Assembly (NCBI RefSeq): GCF_050920415.1
Contig: NZ_CP169309.1
Reading direction: 5' to 3' (one strand)
Source of the DNA: Escherichia coli
GTDB lineage: Bacteria; Pseudomonadota; Gammaproteobacteria; Enterobacterales; Enterobacteriaceae
DNA: 64,000 nt
Program-made: the position numbers and the translations under genes
Notes under the pieces: generated by a model
Database searches by the model: none
What the model saw: only the letters and a program-made list of their open reading frames with translations
Told to the model about the DNA's origin: nothing
In this document: piece by piece, positions 1 to 10,343 of the stretch
How positions within the stretch are numbered: the stretch's first letter is position 1
Layout of the letters: each line of letters starts with the position of its first letter

Positions 1-12
1 GGCAATGTAATC

Positions 13-915
13 ATGCGCTGGATTAAAACAGCCCGTGACCGTGATGAAATGGAAAGGCTAATGCAAGCGGCTTGCGATGCTTTCACGGAAGAAATACCCC
101 GAGCGGAGGCCGTGCCAGTGCCGGAAATTGATTTTCAAAAAAGTCTGGCCCTTTATCCGGTATTCGATTTGCATATAGGGGCGCTTGCTCATAAAGCTGA
201 GTGCGGCGAAAGCTACGACACCGGGATCGCTGAACGCGTGCTAAATGATTTCTTTGACTACGCGGTAGGCGCTGCGCCAATGTCTGAAAAGGCTGTTTTG
301 CTTCTCGGCGGTGATGTGCTTCACACTGACGGCCTGTTACCAGTGACGCCATCAAGTAATCACGTTTTAGATTGTGATTCACGCTACGCAAAACTGGTTT
401 ATGTGGCGATCCGGTCGGTCCGGCGTGCGGTCGGGAAGATGTTACTAAATCATAAGGATGTCGAGATCCAGGTATTATCCGGTAATCACGACCAATCAGG
501 TATGATCTGGCTACGTGCTGCGCTTGCGGCTTTTTACGAAGATGAGCCGCGTGTGACTGTTGACGTGTCACCTGCCATTGTCCACCACACACAGTACGGC
601 AAAACATTCCTTGCTTACCACCACGGGCACACTATCAAAAAGCCAGAAAATTTACTTTCTGCCTGCGTTTCTGACTGGCGGGAGGATTTCGGCAAGTCGT
701 CGGCGGTTTACGCTCATTGCGGGCACTGGCATCATCAACGGCTGATTGAATCATCGTTAGGCGTTGTCGAGTATCACGGCACATTAGCTGGCAAAGACGC
801 TTATTCAACGAATGGCGGCTGGCGGTCGCGGAGGCTGGCGGCGGTAATAATTTACAGTCCTGATCACGGGGAGATCGGGCGCTTTGTTTATTACCCTGAA
901 TATTCCATTTTGTAA
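13..915 (+). CDS. Calcineurin-like metallophosphoesterase-fold protein (phage-associated); may be 5'-truncated by the window edge
   Basis: Motifs DLHIG, GGDVLHTDG, GNHD, HHGH, GHWHH in the translation; reading frame is open back to position 1. Confidence 0.55.
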   Translation: MRWIKTARDRDEMERLMQAACDAFTEEIPRAEAVPVPEIDFQKSLALYPVFDLHIGALAHKAECGESYDTGIAERVLNDFFDYAVGAAPMSEKAVLLLGGDVLHTDGLLPVTPSSNHVLDCDSRYAKLVYVAIRSVRRAVGKMLLNHKDVEIQVLSGNHDQSGMIWLRAALAAFYEDEPRVTVDVSPAIVHHTQYGKTFLAYHHGHTIKKPENLLSACVSDWREDFGKSSAVYAHCGHWHHQRLIESSLGVVEYHGTLAGKDAYSTNGGWRSRRLAAVIIYSPDHGEIGRFVYYPEYSIL

Positions 916-933
916 ACCTGAGGAAATACCATA

Positions 934-2355
934 ATGGTGACTGAGCAAGTAAACTCATTACGCCAGGAACGGGAAGCTGCTGTGATAGGTGGACTCCTGT
1001 TAGGCGGGCTTACTCCTAACGCGCAAGATGTTCTTGCTACGCTCGATCCTGAAGTCTTCACCATTCCACTATATAAACGAGCGTTTGAGATCATCCGGGC
1101 GCAAGCCAGAAACAGAAACCTTATTGACGCGCTGATGGTCGGTGATGAAATCGGTAACGAAAATTTTGTCCCGCTAATGCAAACTGCGCGATCGTGTCCA
1201 TCTGCCGCCAACCTGAAGGGGTACGCCGCGCTATTGCAGGAGGAATATCAGCGGCGGCAAATGCTGGAACTAATGGACGATATACGCTACAACCTGGAAA
1301 CCGGGACACTTGAATCTGTCAGGGAGACGATGAAATATTTTGATTCCCGGTATTCAAAATTAAAGGTAACAAAAGATCAGATTATCCCGGTGCTGTTGCG
1401 CGATGCTGTCCAGGAATACACGGAAGTGCTAAGTAAACGCATGGAGTGTGGCGTGAACTCTGACAACATCAAAACAGGGATTGACCCACTCGACGAAATG
1501 TTAGGCGGCATTAACGCTACTGATCTGGTGCTTATAGCTGGACGCCCAGGGTCTGGTAAATCTGCGTTGGCGTTGGCAATTGCCCGCGCGGCGGCTGAAC
1601 GTCCATACCCTGGCAGCGAAGGTCAACGGGTCGGCGTTTTGCTGTTCACGCTTGAAATGTCGCTCGATCAGATGACTGAACGAGCTATCGCTGGCGCTGG
1701 GAATTTATCAACGGATTGCCTACGTAATCCGGTAAAACTGGATGACGAAGGATGGGCGCACGTTGCCCAGGGGATGAGCGCCCTTGCCGATCTCGATGTG
1801 TGGATTGTTGACGCATCGCAGTTAACGGTTGAGGAAATACGCGCCACCGTCGAACGGATGAAACAGGACCATCCTAATCTTGGAATGGTGATGATTGACT
1901 ACATCGGGTTAATGAAACTGGCTAAGGCCGAACGTCATGATCTCGCCGTAGGGCAATTGTCGTGGTCATTGAAAATGATGGCGAAAGAGTTGCGCGTGCC
2001 AGTGGCGGCGCTGGCGCAATTATCCCGCCGCGTTGAAGAACGACCGAACAAGCGCCCGAACAATTCTGATCTGCGTGATTCCGGTAATCTTGAACAAGAC
2101 GCAGACCGGATCATCATGGTCTACCGCGACGGCTACTACAACGAACAATCAGTTGCCCGCGAATACATGGAGATCATCGTTTCAAAAAACCGTCACGGGA
2201 AAACGGGGACTGTTTACCAGCGGTTTGACGATAACGGCAACATCATTCCATGCGACCAGGCTCGCGCGGCGTCCGCCTGCATCCAGTCAATGCAACAACG
2301 TCCGGCAGCAAGCCGATTCTCCCCACGAAATAACCAGAATAACTCATCCTTTTAA
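934..2355 (+). CDS. DnaB-like replicative DNA helicase (phage type)
   Basis: 473 aa; Walker A motif GRPGSGKSALALAIA and DnaB-like N- and C-terminal regions; GAGGA ribosome-binding site before the ATG. Confidence 0.8.
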   Translation: MVTEQVNSLRQEREAAVIGGLLLGGLTPNAQDVLATLDPEVFTIPLYKRAFEIIRAQARNRNLIDALMVGDEIGNENFVPLMQTARSCPSAANLKGYAALLQEEYQRRQMLELMDDIRYNLETGTLESVRETMKYFDSRYSKLKVTKDQIIPVLLRDAVQEYTEVLSKRMECGVNSDNIKTGIDPLDEMLGGINATDLVLIAGRPGSGKSALALAIARAAAERPYPGSEGQRVGVLLFTLEMSLDQMTERAIAGAGNLSTDCLRNPVKLDDEGWAHVAQGMSALADLDVWIVDASQLTVEEIRATVERMKQDHPNLGMVMIDYIGLMKLAKAERHDLAVGQLSWSLKMMAKELRVPVAALAQLSRRVEERPNKRPNNSDLRDSGNLEQDADRIIMVYRDGYYNEQSVAREYMEIIVSKNRHGKTGTVYQRFDDNGNIIPCDQARAASACIQSMQQRPAASRFSPRNNQNNSSF

Positions 2356-2434
2356 TTAACTTGAGCAAACGGCTTACCGGAAAGTTGATCTCTTTCTGGT
2401 GGCTGTTTTCGCGCTTAAAACGAGGCGAAAAACA

Positions 2435-2992
2435 ATGAGCATTGAACTTGAAACAAAAGTTATCAATATCCTTGAACTGGACGGCATCGCAACAATGCAC
2501 CAGCTACGCCAGAAAACCGGATTATCAGCGGAATATGACGAAGCCGGATGTTTGCCTGAGACAATTAAACACTTGATTGATACTGGTATTGTCGAGCGTG
2601 TATATACATATTTCGGACCGCGCCGCAGATTATTGGGGTATCGAATTAAATATTTGTATGCACAACGTCGTGATCGTGTGGCGGCGTTATTTAGTGACTA
2701 CAGCGTTAAGAAGCGTATGCGTGACATTAGCGCGGAAACTGGTATCCCGTGGAATTACCTGTCGCGCACGCTGCGTTTAATGGTACTTGATGAAACGCTT
2801 TGCATAGACACCAATAAACACGGCCTTAACTTTTACTCACTGTTTAAACCTGGTCGCTTTGGTCACGCTAATGATCTCGCGTTTGATTTTGACAGCCGCC
2901 TGAATGAATACCGGAAAAATAACGGCCTGTTACCGGATAAACCAGTATTTGAGATCGAAAAACTTAACGGTGAAACGGGGTTAGAATTATGA
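2435..2992 (+). CDS. Hypothetical phage protein with an N-terminal winged-helix-like segment
   Basis: ORF 2399-2992; start chosen at MSIELETKV after a GAGG ribosome-binding site; no recognised family. Confidence 0.45.
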   Translation: MSIELETKVINILELDGIATMHQLRQKTGLSAEYDEAGCLPETIKHLIDTGIVERVYTYFGPRRRLLGYRIKYLYAQRRDRVAALFSDYSVKKRMRDISAETGIPWNYLSRTLRLMVLDETLCIDTNKHGLNFYSLFKPGRFGHANDLAFDFDSRLNEYRKNNGLLPDKPVFEIEKLNGETGLEL

Positions 2993-3195
2993 GACGGGTA
3001 ATCTTTTATTCAGTTGAAACGTTTGTCGACGATACGCGCGTTTATTATCCGTGGGAAGTATACGACGCAAAGGTGTATACACCGCCACTGATGCGGAAAT
3101 ATAAACACGTAAAATTTAACCGGGTTTTTGTGCCAATGCGCGATGCATTGCGGGCGCTGCGCGGGGAATTACGAAACACAATGCGGATTGTGTAA
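2989..3195 (+). CDS. Hypothetical small phage protein (68 aa)
   Basis: ATGA start/stop overlap with the upstream ORF suggests translational coupling; no recognisable motif. Confidence 0.35.
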   Translation: MRRVIFYSVETFVDDTRVYYPWEVYDAKVYTPPLMRKYKHVKFNRVFVPMRDALRALRGELRNTMRIV

Positions 3196-3205
3196 GGAGG
3201 GGATT

Positions 3206-3403
3206 ATGAACAAGGATTTAGAATTGACCGTGGAGGATTTAAGCACGATTGCGGAATACATGCGCGGCGATGATCCTGATAAACCTGTCACTGTTGACAT
3301 GAAATATTTAAAAGGCGCTTACATGACAAGCTCGCGGCTAATTTCTTTGCAGGCGATTATGTATGCGCGGGCGCAATGGAAAAATAGCAACGGTGTATTA
3401 TGA
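3206..3403 (+). CDS. Hypothetical small phage protein (65 aa)
   Basis: Strong Shine-Dalgarno AAGGAGG 6 nt upstream of the ATG at 3206; stop overlaps the NinB-like start. Confidence 0.45.
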   Translation: MNKDLELTVEDLSTIAEYMRGDDPDKPVTVDMKYLKGAYMTSSRLISLQAIMYARAQWKNSNGVL

Positions 3404-3831
3404 GGCAAATTAGATTTGAAGTAGTTAATGACGCCGTGAAAGAAAATGCTATCAGGCAGATAAGGGAAATACAGCCTGATAGCAAAAGCCCGCTGATAAT
3501 TACCATCCAGGAGAAAACCCGCTCACTAAGCCAAAATGCGTTGCTTTGGGCGCTGCTAACCGACATTAGCGATCAGGTTAATTGGTACGGCAAGAAGCTG
3601 TCTCCGGAAGACTGGAAAGCGGTATTCACTGCCGGACTTAAGAAATATGGCGTCGTCCCTAACCTGGATAAATCCGGCTTCGTTGTATTGGGAACGTCTA
3701 CAAGCCGGATGAGCAAATCGGAATTCAGTGAACTAATCGAATTAATTTACTCGTTCGGTGCTGAACATAATGTCCAATGGTCGGGTGATACGAAATTAAA
3801 TGAGGAATTCATAAAACGCTGGGGGCAATAA
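3400..3831 (+). CDS. NinB-like recombination protein (lambda Orf/NinB family)
   Basis: 143 aa; pattern IQEKTRSLSQNALLWALLTDISDQVNWYGKKLSPEDWKAVFTAGL resembles lambda NinB as recalled from memory. Confidence 0.7.
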   Translation: MRQIRFEVVNDAVKENAIRQIREIQPDSKSPLIITIQEKTRSLSQNALLWALLTDISDQVNWYGKKLSPEDWKAVFTAGLKKYGVVPNLDKSGFVVLGTSTSRMSKSEFSELIELIYSFGAEHNVQWSGDTKLNEEFIKRWGQ

Positions 3832-4007
3832 TGGCGCGTTATTATATGGCTAAACCTACCGGAATTTTGTATAAGGTTGATGGCGAATACGTTTTTTATT
3901 TTCACAACCAGGCGCGAGAGTGGCGATTGTGTCACGCGCACTTTCAGCACGAAATAGAAAACCACCCTGAATATTTTATTAAGGTTGACAATGTAACGGT
4001 GGCGTAA
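3831..4007 (+). CDS. Hypothetical small phage protein (58 aa)
   Basis: ATG overlaps the NinB-like stop by 1 nt (TAATG); translation MARYYMAKPTGILYKVDGEYVFYFHNQAREWRLCHAHFQHEIENHPEYFIKVDNVTVA; below the ORF-track length cut-off. Confidence 0.35.
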   Translation: MARYYMAKPTGILYKVDGEYVFYFHNQAREWRLCHAHFQHEIENHPEYFIKVDNVTVA

Positions 4008-4022
4008 CTGAGGATAGGCAAA

Positions 4023-4667
4023 ATGAATAAACTTAAAGCAATTGGCGTAATTCGCCATCGTGTAGACCCGGACTACCCTTCTTTTGAGGTTGCCACATAC
4101 CGCAACGAATACCAATATGGATCATCTTTCCTTGTGGGTGTTCGCGCTGATACTGGCGGCACTTATTCAGTTATGGCGGCTTCATGTGTTTTTGAAGAAT
4201 ATAAAAATATAGATGATGACGGCATGAATAAAGAAAGCGAAATTATTGATGAATTAATCGAAGATGAGCGGCATGATTGCGATGCGCCGAAAGTCACGGA
4301 ATGGAAACCAGGAGAAAAGCCTCCGTGCGGCGTGTGGCTTGATTGTTATTATCCTGATGGCTATCACATTGGGATTTTAATGTTTAAATTTATCGGTGAT
4401 AAATACGGGGTATACACAGAAAAAGGCAGTATACAGAAAGAAAATGCTATTGAATGGGGTTTTTATAATTATTATTTATACGTTGATCCGAAAGAAAAAG
4501 CACTGGCACAAATTGCGTTTGCGTTGGCTGCTAAGGTTATTGGTGAGGATGCGGCAGGAGAAATAAATTTCAATCGTGATAATGATTATTCGCGTGATTA
4601 TCGGAATATGGCAAAAGCCATTATTAATGGGGATATCCCGCTAACTAAATATAACGGGGATAAGTGA
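4023..4667 (+). CDS. Hypothetical protein, AT-rich cargo ORF (214 aa), function unknown
   Basis: GAGGA ribosome-binding site; markedly lower GC than flanking genes; acidic stretch followed by a Cys/His-containing segment (HDCDAPKVTEWKPGEKPPCGVWLDCYYPDGYH). Confidence 0.5.
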   Translation: MNKLKAIGVIRHRVDPDYPSFEVATYRNEYQYGSSFLVGVRADTGGTYSVMAASCVFEEYKNIDDDGMNKESEIIDELIEDERHDCDAPKVTEWKPGEKPPCGVWLDCYYPDGYHIGILMFKFIGDKYGVYTEKGSIQKENAIEWGFYNYYLYVDPKEKALAQIAFALAAKVIGEDAAGEINFNRDNDYSRDYRNMAKAIINGDIPLTKYNGDK

Positions 4668-4897
4668 TGGATAAAACCGCGACATTGTTATTGACTACGG
4701 CACGAATAAGGGAAATGCTCGGAGGAATAAGTAGGACAACATTCAGAGTATGGAAAATGAAATGGGAAGCGGCTGGAACACCATTTCCTGAACCGCTTCA
4801 CGAATTATCAACTACGTCGCGCCCTGTATATCGTTATCAAGATGTAATGCAGTTCTTTAAGTCAGTAGGCTTGCTTTCTGATACTGATAAAACGTAA
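4664..4897 (+). CDS. Putative excisionase / AlpA-family DNA-binding protein
   Basis: 77 aa; helix-turn-helix-like TTARIREMLGGISRTTFRVWK; lies next to the integrase; start overlaps the upstream stop (ATGA). Confidence 0.45.
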   Translation: MMDKTATLLLTTARIREMLGGISRTTFRVWKMKWEAAGTPFPEPLHELSTTSRPVYRYQDVMQFFKSVGLLSDTDKT

Positions 4898-6057
4898 TTA
4901 GCCCATAATTCCGCAGCGTCTTTCTGTTCTTCTACATAATCATATCTGTCATAAACTCCTAATACTCCGCCCAGGGTATGGCCCAACATTTTTTCGGCTA
5001 CCTGGGCGGTCACGCCTAATGCCGCTAAATGCGTGCGGCACGTCCGGCGCAAATCATGCGCAGTAAAACCCGCCTTAAATCCAATTTCATTACTAAGCCT
5101 TGTCGCTAGTCTTGTGCACACAGCTTTATCCATTGGTTTACCATCCAGCGACAATACCGCAGGGAAAACTATGTCGAAGTTGTGACAATTAAACATCATG
5201 CTTAATAGCTCGACGCTTAACGTTGACAGGCCGCGCGTAAACCGCTTTTTGTTTTTGGATAGTTCCGCAGGAATATTCCATACCCTGTTATTGAGATCAA
5301 AATGTTCACGCTTTGCTAGCCTCAATTCTACCGTCCTGCATCCTGTTAATAGCAGTAGTCTGAAGAATGTCATATTGGCCTTAGACATAAAATCGCCAGT
5401 CGTAAAACGCCAGAATTCCCCTACTTCCTCGCCAGATAAATATCTGTCGATCTTGCGCGGCGGTTTGCCAACGTCTTCCACTCGCAACAAGCGGATCTCG
5501 TTGTCTTTTACTATCCCTTTCCTTTGCGCCATAGCGACAATGGATTTCATGCGTCGTAACATCGCGCCAGCCTGTACCGGATGGCCCGCTTTCGTTATCT
5601 CTGAGAATATTGCCTCCCACGCCCTTGCGTTAATGTCATCCACAATAAAATCGCCATACCTCTTGATTATGTGCTTTTGTAAGTTTTGCTTGATCTCTTT
5701 GTATCCCTTAATTTCCCTGGTCGTCTGTTTATTAAGATAGTTGTTAACGATATCGCTAACGGTTGCTCTCGCCCTCGCCTCTTCAATGCGCTGCTTCTTA
5801 GCAAGTCCGGGATCTTTGCCGTCTGCTAATATCGCCTTGCACTCAATTACCGCTAGCCTGGCTTCCTTTAGCGTCATTATGCCATAGTTGCCTAGCTTCA
5901 TTCTTTTAGGCTTCCCGTCATACCTGTAGCGATACTGAAACGTAATTACGCCTTTCGGGCTTACCCTTACTGACAGACCGCCGCCATCCGGGATCTCGAC
6001 CGGACCATCATAACTTTTACCGTGGATGCTTCTTAACTTAGTGTCAGATAACGCCAT
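4837..6057 (-). CDS. Site-specific tyrosine integrase (P4 family)
   Basis: 406 aa; N-terminal arm-binding-type region (GLSVRVSPKGVITFQYRYRYDGK), C-terminal catalytic signature HDLRRT...LGH...YDRY. Confidence 0.85.
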   Translation of the reverse strand: MALSDTKLRSIHGKSYDGPVEIPDGGGLSVRVSPKGVITFQYRYRYDGKPKRMKLGNYGIMTLKEARLAVIECKAILADGKDPGLAKKQRIEEARARATVSDIVNNYLNKQTTREIKGYKEIKQNLQKHIIKRYGDFIVDDINARAWEAIFSEITKAGHPVQAGAMLRRMKSIVAMAQRKGIVKDNEIRLLRVEDVGKPPRKIDRYLSGEEVGEFWRFTTGDFMSKANMTFFRLLLLTGCRTVELRLAKREHFDLNNRVWNIPAELSKNKKRFTRGLSTLSVELLSMMFNCHNFDIVFPAVLSLDGKPMDKAVCTRLATRLSNEIGFKAGFTAHDLRRTCRTHLAALGVTAQVAEKMLGHTLGGVLGVYDRYDYVEEQKDAAELWANYVLSVSESKPTDLKNCITS

Positions 6058-6464
6058 AATCGCCCCTTATTTGGTGCACAACATGGTACACAAATCATGG
6101 TTTACGCAATATAACGCAAAAGCGCGCTTGTTTACAGCGAAAACCAGTAAATCTACTAAATTCATGGCGTTAGGGGTGATTTTGCTTGCGTATGTTTACG
6201 CTTGTGCGCGGTATGTAGCATTAGAAAGAGAAATGCTGCTGACCAACAGCGCACAACACGTGACTGAAACAGAGTGCTTCATAAGTTACCCTCAAACCTG
6301 CGTTAATAATCATGCGTAATTATTTGTTTCGCCTTAAAGAAATGCAAACAACTTCCGGCAAAAAAGTGATACGAGATCGATAACATAGCGTTGAAGAAAA
6401 GGATTTGATAATCCGCAAAATTTGCACAACACTGCCTGTAATACTTCCTGAACCAGAGACGATC

Positions 6465-7193
6465 ATGACCGTAACTCGCCCACGCGCCGAACGCGGCGCA
6501 TTTCCGCCCGGTACAGAACATTACGGACGTTCATTATTGGGCGCGCCTTTGATCTGGTTTCCGGCCCCAGCCGCCAGTCACGAAAGTGGTTTGATTCTGG
6601 CTGGCACCCACGGTGATGAAAACTCTTCGGTCGTGACCCTCTCCTGTGCTCTGCGGACATTGACACCTTCTTTGCGCCGCCATCATGTGGTGCTGTGTGT
6701 GAATCCTGACGGCTGCCAGTTAGGGTTACGGGCCAATGCTAATGGCGTGGATTTAAATAGAAACTTTCCGGCAGCAAACTGGAAGGAAGGTGAAACGGTT
6801 TATCGCTGGAACAGCGCCGCTGAAGAACGTGATGTCGTTTTACTGACAGGTGACAAACCTGGCTCCGAACCTGAAACTCAGGCGCTGTGCCAGCTTATAC
6901 ATCGCATTCAACCTGCCTGGGTGGTCTCATTCCACGATCCACTGGCCTGTATTGAAGACCCCAGACACAGCGAATTAGGTGAATGGCTGGCCCAGGCGTT
7001 TGAATTGCCACTGGTAACCAGCGTCGGTTATGAAACGCCTGGCTCTTTCGGCAGTTGGTGTGCAGATCTGAACTTGCATTGCATCACCGCAGAGTTTCCG
7101 CCCATCTCCTCCGACGAAGCCAGCGAAAAATATCTCTTTGCGATGGCAAACTTGCTGCGCTGGCATCCTAAAGATGCAATTCACCCGTTGTGA
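6465..7193 (+). CDS. mpaA: Murein peptide amidase A (gamma-D-Glu-Dap amidase)
   Basis: Translation MTVTRPRAERGAFPPGTEHYGRS...; 242 aa from the internal ATG, matching the known length. Confidence 0.85.
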   Translation: MTVTRPRAERGAFPPGTEHYGRSLLGAPLIWFPAPAASHESGLILAGTHGDENSSVVTLSCALRTLTPSLRRHHVVLCVNPDGCQLGLRANANGVDLNRNFPAANWKEGETVYRWNSAAEERDVVLLTGDKPGSEPETQALCQLIHRIQPAWVVSFHDPLACIEDPRHSELGEWLAQAFELPLVTSVGYETPGSFGSWCADLNLHCITAEFPPISSDEASEKYLFAMANLLRWHPKDAIHPL

Positions 7194-8133
7194 ACTGAAG
7201 CGCCGGTTCCACATCTACCGCCAGCCAGGTCGGTCCGTCAAGATCGGCGAAACTGACCTGCGGCACCAGCGGTAAAGCGGCGCTAATGGCACGAGAGGTA
7301 CACAACATGCAGCCCAGCATCAGACTAAAACCTTGTGCACGTGCTTCAGTCGCCAGCGCCAGCGCTTCCGTCAGGCCACCCGTTTTATCGAGCTTAATGT
7401 TAACCATCTCATAGCGCCCTTGCAGCGCCTTCAGATTGCTACGAGTATGACAACTTTCATCTGCACAAATCGGTAACGGATGAATAAAATTCTCCAGTGC
7501 CGCATCGTCCTGCGCAGGAAGCGGTTGTTCAAGCATCGCAACGCCTAAATCCGCCAATAGCTGGCAACGCGCCGCCAACCCTTCTGAACGCCAGGATTCA
7601 TTTGCATCAACGATCAGCGTCGCATCGGGCACAGCTGTGCGAATTGCCACCATCCGCTCACTGATAAGATGGTTATCCAGCTTCACTTTCAGTAATTTCG
7701 CGCCTGCCTGCCAGAGTGTTGATGCACTATTGGCCATCTGATCAGGCGTACCGATGACTACCGTCTGGGCAGTGGTGACTGTCTCGGGAAGCGTTATGCC
7801 GATCAAATCAGCCAGCGATTGCTGCTGTTTTCGCGCCGCCAGATCCCACAATGCACAATCCAGCGCATTACGTGCTGCGCCGGCAGGGAGAATTTTTTGC
7901 AACTCCTCCCGTGTCAGCCCTTTCTCTAATTGCGGCACGACGCTCATAATTTGCGCCATTACCGAGGCATCACTTTCTCCATAACGCGGATACGGCGTGC
8001 ATTCACCGGTGCCTTTAATACCTTCTTCTTCCAGTTCAACCACCACCACGCGCGCTTCACTACGACTTCCCCGAGCAATCACAAACGGGGTATGTAAGGG
8101 CCAGGCTTCCTCAAATACCTTAACGGTTCTCAT
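7168..8133 (-). CDS. ycjG: L-Ala-D/L-Glu epimerase
   Basis: Enolase-superfamily translation MRTVKVFEEAWPLHTPFVIARGSR...; 321 aa; 3' end overlaps mpaA convergently. Confidence 0.85.
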   Translation of the reverse strand: MRTVKVFEEAWPLHTPFVIARGSRSEARVVVVELEEEGIKGTGECTPYPRYGESDASVMAQIMSVVPQLEKGLTREELQKILPAGAARNALDCALWDLAARKQQQSLADLIGITLPETVTTAQTVVIGTPDQMANSASTLWQAGAKLLKVKLDNHLISERMVAIRTAVPDATLIVDANESWRSEGLAARCQLLADLGVAMLEQPLPAQDDAALENFIHPLPICADESCHTRSNLKALQGRYEMVNIKLDKTGGLTEALALATEARAQGFSLMLGCMLCTSRAISAALPLVPQVSFADLDGPTWLAVDVEPALQFTTGELHL

Positions 8134-8251
8134 CTTTACTCCTTGTTGTCGCGGTGGTCTGCAGATTAAGCGCAAATAGCGTTTGCTGTGTTATTGACAG
8201 TTAGCATAAACTAGGTGTGACGTTAACTATATGTAAACAGGAAAGATAATC

Positions 8252-8758
8252 ATGTCACAAACCGTTCATTTCCAGGGCAACCCGGTTACAGTCGCCAATT
8301 CCATCCCGCTGGCGGGTAGCAAAGCGCAGACTTTTACTCTCGTGGCAAAAGATCTGTCTGACGTCACCCTCGGTCAGTTTGCGGGTAAACGCAAAGTGCT
8401 GAACATTTTCCCGAGTATTGATACCGGTGTTTGCGCCGCATCAGTACGTAAGTTTAACCAACTGGCAACCGAGATCGACAACACCGTTGTGCTGTGTATC
8501 TCTGCTGATCTGCCGTTCGCCCAGTCTCGTTTCTGCGGCGCAGAAGGTCTGAACAACGTTATCACCCTCTCCACTTTCCGTAACGCTGAATTCCTGCAAG
8601 CCTACGGTGTGGCAATTGCTGATGGCCCACTGAAAGGTCTGGCAGCGCGTGCCGTTGTGGTTATCGATGAAAATGACAATGTGATTTTCAGCCAGCTGGT
8701 TGATGAAATCACCACCGAGCCGGATTACGAAGCAGCTCTGGCTGTACTGAAAGCATAA
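8252..8758 (+). CDS. tpx: Thiol peroxidase
   Basis: 168 aa; [28 protein letters not shown]... Confidence 0.92.
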
Positions 8759-8762
8759 GTTA

Positions 8763-8795
8763 ATATGCCTGATGGTGTTGCACCATCAGGCATAT
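8763..8795. terminator. Hairpin between convergent tpx and tyrR (putative bidirectional terminator)
   Basis: Perfect 15-bp inverted repeat atatgcctgatggtg / caccatcaggcatat with a 3-nt loop. Confidence 0.55.
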
Positions 8796-8801
8796 TCGCG
8801 C

Positions 8802-10343
8802 TTACTCTTCGTTCTTCTTCTGACTCAGACCATATTCCCGCAACTTATTGGCAATCGCGGTATGCGAAACGCCGAGACGTTTTGCCAGTTTGCGCGTGCT
8901 GGGATAATTGCGATAAAGCTGACTTAATACCGAGCGTTCAAAACGGCTGGTAATTTCGTCCAGCGAACCTTCCATCGCATCTTCGCCCACGGCTACCGTT
9001 GCGGCGTCATAATCCGGCAACAAAATATCCTGAGGACGCAGCTCATAGCCGTCCAGTTGTGTCAGTGCGCGATAGATAGCGTTCTTTAACTGCCGCACAT
9101 TTCCCGGCCACGCATAACGCGTAAGTACAGTATTCAGGTCAGCGGCCAGTTTCGGACGCGGCACGCCCTGCTCGTCGGCAAAGCGGGCGACGAACAGCTC
9201 GGTTAACGGCATGATGTCCTGCGGACAGTCACGTAACGGCGGCAGATTGAGCGTCAACACGTTCAGACGATAATAGAGATCTTCACGGAACACGCCTTTT
9301 TGCACCAGTTCGACCAAATTCTTCTGCGTAGCGCAAATAACCCTTACATCGACATGCACTTCATGATCTTCACCAACTCGACGGAAAGTACCATCATTAA
9401 GGAAACGCAGTAATTTCGCCTGCATCCTTGGCGACATCTCGCCTATCTCATCTAACAGCACCGAACCACCGTTCGCCTGCTCAAAGAACCCTTTTTTACC
9501 TTCCGGAGCATGACCAAACAGTTCACTCTCGACCGCATCTTCCGGTATAGACGCGCAGTTCAGCGCCAGATAAGGTTTGCCCGCTCGTGGGCTTGCCTGA
9601 TGGCAGGCGTAGGCAAAGAGATCTTTACCTGTACCGGTGTCACCCGTAATCAGCAACGGCGCGCTTAGCATCGCCAGTTTCTGCGCCTGTTCGACAACAT
9701 GCTTCATTTTCGGGCTGACGGCGACAATTTGACTGAAGGCACTGACGTCCTGTGCAGCGACATTCTGCAACTGACGACCCATACGAATCGTCGAGCGCAA
9801 CATCACCACCGCACCGGTCAGAACGTGTTGATCATTTTCATCCTGAAGATAAACAGGCGTAATCTCCATCAGGAAATTCTGCCCATTAATAACGACATGC
9901 TCGTTATGCGAGTCTTGCGGTTCGCTTTCCAGCCAGCGTAAAAAATTAAAGCCGTTAATTAATTGCGCGGCGGTATGGTTGCGCAGGCGATCCAATTTTT
10001 GCCCAAAAAGCTGACAGCTCGCCGGGTTCGCCATATCCACTTTGCTTTTCATATCAACAGAAAGCACAGGCTCAGGCAACGCCTCCAGTAACGCGCTCAA
10101 CGCCAGATGCTCACGTTCGGAAGGCATCCACGGAACAGTGCGCACATCGGTAACACCTGCAATACGGCGTATTTCGGCCATCAGACTGCTGAAACTTTCA
10201 AATTCCAGTTCGGCAAAATTGAGGTAGATTCGCCCAATGGGGTCAATCTCAATACCGCGTAAATCAATACCTCTTAGCACGAGTAGATCGAGTAATTCGC
10301 GGGTCAGACCGAGTCGGTCTTCACAAAAGACTTCCAGACGCAT
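8802..10343 (-). CDS. tyrR: Transcriptional regulator TyrR (sigma54-type AAA+ fold)
   Basis: MRLEVFCEDRLGLTRELLDLLVLRGIDLRGIEIDPIGRIYLNF...; 513 aa from the internal ATG. Confidence 0.9.
   Translation of the reverse strand: MRLEVFCEDRLGLTRELLDLLVLRGIDLRGIEIDPIGRIYLNFAELEFESFSSLMAEIRRIAGVTDVRTVPWMPSEREHLALSALLEALPEPVLSVDMKSKVDMANPASCQLFGQKLDRLRNHTAAQLINGFNFLRWLESEPQDSHNEHVVINGQNFLMEITPVYLQDENDQHVLTGAVVMLRSTIRMGRQLQNVAAQDVSAFSQIVAVSPKMKHVVEQAQKLAMLSAPLLITGDTGTGKDLFAYACHQASPRAGKPYLALNCASIPEDAVESELFGHAPEGKKGFFEQANGGSVLLDEIGEMSPRMQAKLLRFLNDGTFRRVGEDHEVHVDVRVICATQKNLVELVQKGVFREDLYYRLNVLTLNLPPLRDCPQDIMPLTELFVARFADEQGVPRPKLAADLNTVLTRYAWPGNVRQLKNAIYRALTQLDGYELRPQDILLPDYDAATVAVGEDAMEGSLDEITSRFERSVLSQLYRNYPSTRKLAKRLGVSHTAIANKLREYGLSQKKNEE

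Follow-up and report, generated by a model that had tools for sequence, protein, structure and literature searches.

The first gene in a 64,000-nucleotide (nt) stretch of Escherichia coli DNA (RefSeq assembly GCF_050920415.1, contig NZ_CP169309.1; hereafter, the window) lies in a temperate prophage, just upstream of a gene for a DnaB-family replicative helicase. Its product combines a predicted helix-turn-helix (HTH) with a metallophosphoesterase (MPE) domain. The balance of evidence tips somewhat toward a metal-dependent DNA phosphodiesterase, tethered through its HTH and acting without an SMC partner, that serves as an accessory in early phage DNA metabolism. The phage family to which it belongs is already catalogued, the window copy being nearly identical to known members, and the phage group that carries it has been described. 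A first-pass annotation, made from the sequence alone, had placed this gene where a lambdoid phage carries its O-type initiator or helicase loader, and had offered as a fallback an accessory or defense-related enzyme co-expressed with the replication genes. The fallback now fits the data best.

Gene Extent, Predicted Fold, and Active Site

The gene is already in progress at the window edge. Frame +1 contains no stop between base 1 (GGC AAT GTA ATC ATG, encoding GNVIM) and the TAA codon at 913–915. The first-pass annotation began its 300-residue open reading frame (ORF) at position 13, the first ATG of this frame; that codon specifies the internal residue Met73, and all relatives have 68 more amino-terminal codons. 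In every relative, window base 1 corresponds to base 205 of an MPE gene of 1,119–1,131 nt (372–376 residues); in the aligned locus, these positions are base 6205 and, for the gene start, base 6001. Of the 304 residues that the window encodes, 300 are the same as in residues 69–372 of the 372-residue protein from the E. coli GF66.2 prophage. The PHROG 704 profile matches the 300-residue fragment only from profile position 91 of 390 (E=1.2e-122), whereas it matches the full-length protein from position 2 (residues 4–368 on profile positions 2–387 of 390; E=2.1e-138). Evidently, therefore, the window edge cuts the gene, and the first 204 nt (68 codons, encoding the HTH) lie upstream. Residues are numbered here as in the full-length protein (residue of the 13..915 ORF plus 72).

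The 68 residues upstream of the window, beginning MSQRKISDEQLIAEHNNGLTYKQIAEKYGMAKRNVERLGARLAKRG, form a helix-turn-helix in the relatives' protein. The amino-terminal region has a profile match to GerE (E=0.008), the amino termini of other family members match the Pfam families Sigma70_r4_2, GerE, and HTH_1, and a match to PHROG 3855 (E=6e-5) also supports the HTH. A profile search against the PDB returned weak HTH matches only, plus T. maritima Mre11 at E=0.2–0.6; single-sequence searches (Pfam, NCBIfam, and phmmer against the PDB) gave nothing informative for the MPE domain.

An AlphaFold2 model, made with the alignment of 65 sequences described below, has a mean predicted local distance difference test score (pLDDT) of 93.1. 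Its layout comprises the HTH (residues 8–44, with helices at 8–16, 21–28, and 32–44), a β-hairpin (56–80), a helix (82–97), and the MPE core (117–365), which adopts the two-sheet β-sandwich of the MPE fold. As modeled, then, this is a two-part protein: a three-helix HTH plus β-hairpin, followed by a binuclear MPE domain. The structure prediction that the first-pass annotation had proposed as a check places the model nearest to the nucleases PolD DP1, SbcD, and Mre11, and not to the PPP/NinI phosphatases. Structure-comparison values were 14.3 for MJ0936, 13.7 for LpxH, and 9.0 for PP5, and Foldseek gave the same picture.

All seven canonical metal and catalytic ligands of MPE proteins (DxH, GD, GNH[D/E], H, and GHxH) are present in the window copy between nt 163 and 735, so the calcineurin-like motif set noted earlier is complete in all five of its motifs (Table 1). 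The conservation alignment holds 65 diverse homologs, 30–57% identical to the query; its invariant columns are R196 and the residues marked invariant in Table 1. Because the ligands are conserved across the 65 homologs, the alignment indicates that the motifs are not chance occurrences, and that the full ligand set is under purifying selection. Motif II resembles the AGDVFDTG of E. coli SbcD. The Pfam profiles Metallophos (PF00149) and Metallophos_2 leave the query MPE domain unmatched even at E≤10; PF00149 matches nine of the 65 family members at E≤1e-3, and 20 of the 65 at E≤0.1.

The protein belongs to PHROG 704 ("DNA repair exonuclease"), whose hidden Markov model (HMM) it matches end to end. 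By tblastn, 2,044 phage records carry the family; hosts of the gene include Drexlerviridae, Jerseyvirus, Webervirus, Dhillonvirus, an SP6-like podovirus, and Vibrio, Rhodobacter, Ruegeria, and Thermus phages. In a library of 1.84 billion proteins, 4,334 clusters (50% identity) match at E≤1e-3 and 905 at E≤1e-30. Sources label the members variously as "putative phosphoesterase," "DNA repair exonuclease," "metallophosphoesterase," and "DNA polymerase II small subunit." Neither NCBIfam nor PADLOC has a model that matches the protein, and a scan with a distant family representative (P0128) gave no match.

At the level of sequence profiles, the PHROG 704 family appears to stand alone. The family HMM scores lambda NinI (−2.5 bits), SbcD (1.3), T5 A1 (2.7), and Bxb1 gp47 (7.7) all below 8 bits. 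In hhalign and hmmsearch comparisons, which were made against single SbcD, gp47, and A1 sequences and so can neither establish nor exclude clade-level relatedness, motif III is the sole stretch aligned to SbcD and T5 A1, and Bxb1 gp47 aligns at motif III and on through motifs IV and V.

Gene Order in mEp021-Like Phages and Other Lineages

From base 1 to approximately 6214, the window is the right end of an mEp021-like temperate prophage. The mEp021-like ("mEpimmI") phages are non-lambdoid, Nus-dependent temperate siphophages (PMC11893012); the MPE gene is not discussed in the paper that describes them. Megablast against 5,426 complete E. coli genomes places the region in 34 of them; seven phages also carry it: MagusPhagus, 94% identical across the window's first 2.4 kb, and mEp013, mEp044, mEp554, mEp515, mEp010, and mEp021, 84–87% identical.

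In relatives, the early rightward operon comprises, in order, a divergent LexA-like repressor gene; genes for an 80-residue winged helix-turn-helix (wHTH) protein and a 350-residue Lin1244/Lin1753 protein; optional insertions; the HTH-MPE gene; an optional HNH gene; dnaB; and a gene for a MarR/Lrp-like wHTH protein. The 80-residue protein matches the amino termini of "replication initiation" PHROGs 4617, 1032, and 270. The 350-residue protein matches Pfam Lin1244_N (E=2.8e-9) and PHROG 345/428 ("replication initiation O-like"). Since both match initiator families, the initiator slot is, by homology, already occupied, directly upstream of the MPE gene and just past the window edge; the MPE does not stand in the place of an O initiator or loader as had been supposed.

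On the other side, the MPE stop codon and the helicase start codon are separated by 18 nt. The two genes had been described as translationally linked. This is an overstatement: the spacer carries its own Shine-Dalgarno sequence, and the stop and start codons do not overlap. No promoter-like or terminator-like site falls in this gap, for which reason the MPE gene and dnaB are probably co-transcribed. The neighbor is indeed a DnaB-like helicase, with matches to TIGR00665 (E=1.6e-97) and TIGR03600 phage_DnaB (E=2.5e-84), both below NCBI curated/equivalog cutoffs, in addition to PHROG 19; RefSeq relatives are annotated "replicative DNA helicase." The helicase also has a weak PADLOC match to "mad8" (E=1.6e-9, residues 193–339), which probably reflects the common RecA/P-loop core and not a defense function.

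How general is this adjacency? ORFs were called in 80 IMG/VR loci found with the MPE protein and in annotated relatives, and were searched with the window DnaB and its neighbors. The order MPE then dnaB holds in 45 of 45 mEp021-like loci (43 from IMG/VR at 89–100% identity, plus L001 and L002). The other annotated relatives share the order. Throughout, the 18-nt spacing (7119 to 7138 in locus coordinates) is constant unless an HNH gene intervenes, as it does in three of the IMG/VR loci and in three phages outside the 45, mEp021, mEp010, and mEp515. Elsewhere the pairing disappears. No DnaB-like ORF lies within 6 kb in any of 37 T1-like loci (57–67% identity), none was matched in the scanned 50 kb of phage Bas01, and none lies within 5 kb in a further 136 loci, which were retrieved with Webervirus and Jerseyvirus orthologs and are of Webervirus, T1-like, Jersey-like, or environmental type. 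Thus, the adjacency is found in none of about 190 non-mEp021 loci (within 5–6 kb). In T1-like phages the MPE gene instead has a helicase-VRR-NUC-methylase block before it and the holin and endolysin genes after it; in Jersey-like phages it lies between tail genes. The co-occurrence with DnaB-like helicases that the first-pass annotation had proposed to check therefore holds within the mEp021-like lineage and fails outside it. Being universal in the one and absent from the others, adjacency to dnaB is a lineage-specific placement of a mobile early gene, and not a coupling that the MPE requires.

A different set of neighbors recurs in several distant lineages, in which a HAD phosphatase gene and then a P-loop protein gene lie directly downstream of the MPE gene. 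The HAD protein, a member of PHROG 415, matches the T4 Pnkp 3′-phosphatase domain (1ltq, E=8e-5) and Pnkp1 (4xrp, E=1e-6); the P-loop protein belongs to PHROG 139, "dNMP kinase" (dNMP, deoxynucleoside monophosphate). This arrangement occurs in 38 of the 80 loci retrieved with the Webervirus ortholog and in one Jersey-like contig, as well as in the phages listed in Table 1. In Bas01, a kinase-like gene lies 8 kb from the MPE gene. The MPE-HAD-kinase set may form a DNA end-processing or nucleotide-salvage module. An SbcC/Rad50-like partner was not among the neighbors: phmmer with E. coli SbcC found none at E≤0.01 in 5,163 ORFs from 86 loci, which extend as far as 6 kb to either side of the IMG/VR matches. 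Unbiased clustering of neighboring ORFs recovered mainly Drexlerviridae synteny (helicase, VRR-NUC, and lysis genes) and, beyond the HAD and dNMP-kinase-like clusters and HNH genes, no new partner.

Genes for HNH-AP2 homing endonucleases directly flank the MPE gene, upstream or downstream, in distant phage lineages: the mEp021-type phages, wksl3, a Vibrio phage, Bas01, and several IMG/VR loci. The three proteins compared are homologous, those of wksl3 and the Vibrio phage being 43% and 32% identical, respectively, to that of mEp021. In mEp021 itself, endonuclease genes lie on both sides of the MPE gene. Homing endonucleases seem to have targeted this conserved gene repeatedly. In three IMG/VR loci (L174, L187, and L231), the MPE gene appears as two or three consecutive ORFs or short fragments (approximately 100–310 residues), and it has a similar appearance in phiJLA23, Salmonella phage 36, and RDJL Phi 1. 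These genes could be split or frameshifted, possibly after endonuclease insertion.

The remainder of the prophage right end holds further genes (Table 1). The MarR/Lrp-AsnC-like wHTH gene follows dnaB in every mEp021-like locus examined, a synteny as tight as that of the MPE gene. The 214-residue ORF is unmatched in PHROGs, NCBIfam, and PADLOC. Chromosomal homology (the mppA 3′ end, mpaA, and ycjG) resumes at approximately 6214, and no tRNA gene is present in window positions 1–9000. E. coli GF66.2 carries a related prophage near the same region, with IS1, pgrR, and ycjY between the prophage and mpaA.

Table 1. Positions of the features discussed. Unprefixed positions refer to the window; those with an L number refer to comparison loci. 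Residues are numbered as in the full-length protein.
Feature	Position	Strand	Remarks
HTH-MPE gene, 3′ 915 nt (codons 69–372 plus stop)	1..915	+	Frame 1 open from base 1
MPE motif I, FDLHIG	163..180	+	D124, H126 invariant in 65 homologs
MPE motif II, GGDVLHTDG	307..333	+	G172, D173 invariant; H176, D178 kept in at least 90% of the 65
MPE motif III, SGNHDQ	478..495	+	N230, H231 invariant
MPE motif IV, YHHGH	616..630	+	H276, G277 invariant
MPE motif V, CGHWHH	718..735	+	G309, H312 invariant; H310 kept in at least 90% of the 65
Spacer, MPE stop to helicase start	916..933	+	18 nt; Shine-Dalgarno GAGGA at 920–924
DnaB-family replicative helicase, 473 residues	934..2355	+	PHROG 19, E=2.6e-110
MarR/Lrp-AsnC-like wHTH	2399–2992	+	PHROG 1687, E=1.7e-8
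214-residue ORF	4023–4667	+	Between ninB and integrase end; RefSeq relatives: hypothetical protein
77-residue DNA-binding ORF	4664..4897		Convergent with integrase gene; overlaps its 3′ end by 61 nt
Tyrosine integrase	4837..6057	−	Prophage right end
Full-length relative of the MPE	L001:11797-12915		E. coli GF66.2 prophage, 372 residues
MPE-HAD-P-loop, then ATP-dependent DNA ligase	L093:3998-7200		Erwinia podophage Era103
MPE-HAD-P-loop	L094:4001-6233		Escherichia phage OzMSK
MPE-HAD-P-loop	L098:2992-5226		Klebsiella Webervirus
MPE, "nucleotidase," dNMP kinase	L092:3689-6378		Thermus phage Lalka27a
dNMP 5′-phosphatase one gene from MPE	L097:2686-5479		Ruegeria phage V16
HNH gene	L003:7907-8410		mEp021_10
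HNH gene	L005:7172-7672		wksl3 gp48
HNH gene	L006:7208-7717		
HNH gene	L088:39208-39693		bas01_0051
HNH gene upstream of MPE	L059, L060, L063, L066		
495-residue HNH endonuclease upstream of MPE	L003:5266-6753		mEp021
T5 A1	L099:1706-3376		

Candidate Functions

The analysis established the fold, the conservation of the active site, the family assignment, and the order and distribution of the genes; a DNA substrate, a metal requirement, and a physiological role are what we infer. In the favored model, the HTH would hold the MPE on DNA, where it would act as an exo- and/or endonuclease, cutting or resecting DNA ends without a Rad50/SbcC-type partner. The substrate would be host DNA, supplying dNMPs, and/or phage replication and recombination intermediates. 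Early in infection, the enzyme would be accessory to replication, recombination, or nucleotide supply; in mEp021-like phages it would do so as a gene of the early rightward operon, with initiator genes before it and dnaB after it. Since close orthologs occur in T1-like phages without DnaB, the protein is independent of the helicase.

One of these orthologs provides experimental clues. Bas01_0050, from phage AugustePiccard, is 53% identical to the MPE over its full length (E=2e-147). The cloned gene proved toxic to E. coli. Phages with missense or frameshift changes in it plate and evade the DRT7 defense, which lambda evades through gam (bioRxiv 10.64898/2026.02.16.706125). Thus, phages bearing such mutations remain able to form plaques, the protein is harmful to the cell, and its presence exposes the phage to a defense system. 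A10ZJ24 gp48, a stand-alone phage MPE with phosphodiesterase activity, disrupts host genome integrity (PMC12287305). The HAD and kinase-like neighbors, which act on DNA ends or DNA-breakdown products, also count in favor of a nuclease.

Several considerations weigh against this model. A degrader of host DNA in the early operon of a temperate phage would conflict with lysogeny, so the salvage role to which the HAD and dNMP-kinase neighbors point may not extend to the mEp021 lineage; near the MPE gene, that lineage has no such genes. The HTH domain is outside the window, and its assignment relies on weak E-values for the query. The modeled structure distinguishes nucleases from small-molecule phosphodiesterases only weakly, and profiles tie the family to SbcD, Bxb1 gp47, and T5 A1 by short motif matches only.

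A more specific version, which is unlikely, holds that the HTH-MPE protein is a DNA-attacking early function of T1-like and related siphophages that the DRT7/UG10 reverse-transcriptase defense senses. Here a partner-less, Mre11/DP1-like nuclease would make ends and dNMPs for the adjacent Pnkp-type phosphatase and dNMP kinase in phages that have them, the DRT7 trigger would be likened to the interference of lambda Gam with RecBCD, and the mEp021-like phages would have recruited the MPE into their replication operon, perhaps restrained by the HTH. A quite unlikely proposal ties the protein to replication itself, as a replisome-associated 3′-end editing exonuclease on the phage DnaB, akin to PolD DP1 or to what has been proposed for Bxb1 gp47. 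The MPE would trim 3′ ends or flaps, and for mEp021-like phages it would count as a genuine component of replication; its position upstream of dnaB in all 45 mEp021-like loci favors this reading. However, T1-like and Jersey-like carriers use other replication machinery and keep the gene by lysis or tail genes; missense and frameshift mutants of the Bas1 ortholog still make plaques; the amino terminus is an HTH plus hairpin, with neither an OB fold nor a polymerase-binding domain; and hhalign assigns gp47 only a 17% probability. Counter-defense is decidedly unlikely as well. This would be a nucleotide or RNA-end phosphoesterase that cleaves cyclic (oligo)nucleotide signals or heals 2′,3′-cyclic-phosphate ends, akin to the MPE domain of Clostridium thermocellum Pnkp and working with the neighboring phosphatase, kinase-like protein, and ligase. 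The Pnkp-type 3′-phosphatase and P-loop kinase-like neighbors, the ligase in Era103, and the interaction of this accessory gene with a defense system are all in keeping with it. Yet the P-loop neighbor matches dNMP kinase (PHROG 139) and not polynucleotide kinase, a hydrolase of soluble nucleotides would have little evident use for a fused HTH, the toxicity seen in uninfected E. coli suggests that a macromolecule of the cell is attacked, and neither PADLOC nor any other known anti-defense family matches the MPE. A component of a defense system was likewise considered and rejected, PADLOC giving no match.

The idea that the MPE is the replication initiator or DnaB loader of a non-lambdoid module is very improbable. 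It draws on the position of the gene between initiator-like genes and dnaB, the place of lambda P, in all mEp021-like loci; on annotated relatives, in which no DnaC- or P-like loader is seen; and on the HTH, which could bind an origin. But an O-like/Lin1244_N protein and a small initiator-type wHTH already fill the initiator slot, HNH genes can interrupt the MPE-dnaB pair, and orthologs 53–66% identical reside in T1-like phages with no DnaB-like ORF nearby. Moreover, the conserved catalytic residues would be needless in a loader, mutants of the Bas1 ortholog are viable, and PHROGs, Pfam, and NCBIfam show no similarity to any initiator or loader family; a literature search for a metallophosphoesterase helicase loader found nothing. 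A NinI-type (lambda PP-like) Ser/Thr protein phosphatase, the routine identity that the first-pass annotation had considered, is scarcely credible. A shared superfamily and a location among phage early genes are what the two have in common; against this, hhalign to lambda NinI gives 0.8%, NinI reaches −2.5 bits with the family HMM, the query has no Pfam Metallophos match, and the PPP signature GDxVDRG is absent, with GDVLHTDG in its stead. The profile scores and missing signature effectively refute this candidate.

The window copy matters little in itself: of its 304 residues, 4 differ from those of a RefSeq E. coli protein. Interest attaches instead to the family, because of its abundance (2,044 phage records, among them therapeutic-type phages of Klebsiella, Salmonella, and E. 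coli) and because the Bas1 ortholog is toxic and decides sensitivity to DRT7. Identification of the substrate would shed light on the treatment of host DNA by T1-like phages and on the signal to which DRT7 responds.

Comparison with Known Systems

Lambda NinI (PP-lambda) shares the superfamily only, and is unrelated at the family level. SbcD, Mre11, and T4 gp47 have a capping domain, whereas the MPE ends at residue 372, just past the core, and has an amino-terminal HTH instead. For E. coli SbcD, the hhalign probability against the family is 2.4%, with motif III alone aligned. Membership in the SbcCD/Mre11-Rad50 group was rejected: capping domain, SbcC partner, and profile similarity are all missing. 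Archaeal PolD DP1, a proofreading 3′–5′ exonuclease, has an OB-fold and a DP2 partner; the MPE has neither, and carries the HTH in place of these. In the model, its amino-terminal region consists of three helices and one β-hairpin, not a five-stranded OB barrel. No polymerase gene is present in the annotated relatives.

Phage T5 offers a likeness at the level of organization. Its A1 protein is needed for host DNA degradation, and the HAD dNMPase Dmp degrades the resulting dNMPs; here too a nuclease-type early protein is tied to a HAD phosphatase, as in several MPE lineages. The mEp021 lineage differs in having no HAD partner. By eye, the carboxyl-terminal half of A1 contains MPE-like motifs (YGDIH, HDVHD, ESNHD, VHGH, and GHTH), and A1 may be a metallophosphatase. 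A1 has no Pfam match, aligns to the family by hhalign at 16% over 19 columns, and is not a detectable member; a literature search for T5 pre-early metallophosphatases found nothing.

Bxb1 gp47 and A10ZJ24 gp48, from cluster A mycobacteriophages, are 255 residues long, lack an HTH, and have their motif I near residue 10. Bxb1 gp47 aligns to the family over 90 columns spanning motifs III–V (hhalign probability 17.5%, E=1.4e-3), which is not significant. Phage DNA replication requires gp47, which also serves the serine integrase of Bxb1 as its recombination directionality factor; the prophage described here has a tyrosine integrase.

The T1-like phosphoesterases (T1 p16 and Bas01_0050) belong to the same PHROG 704 and share the same arrangement of HTH, hairpin, and MPE in approximately 372–376 residues; the Tempevirinae proteins are 66% identical to the MPE over their full length. 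The difference is one of setting. The T1-like gene precedes the lysis genes, without DnaB, whereas its mEp021-like counterpart sits between initiator genes and dnaB in a temperate phage.

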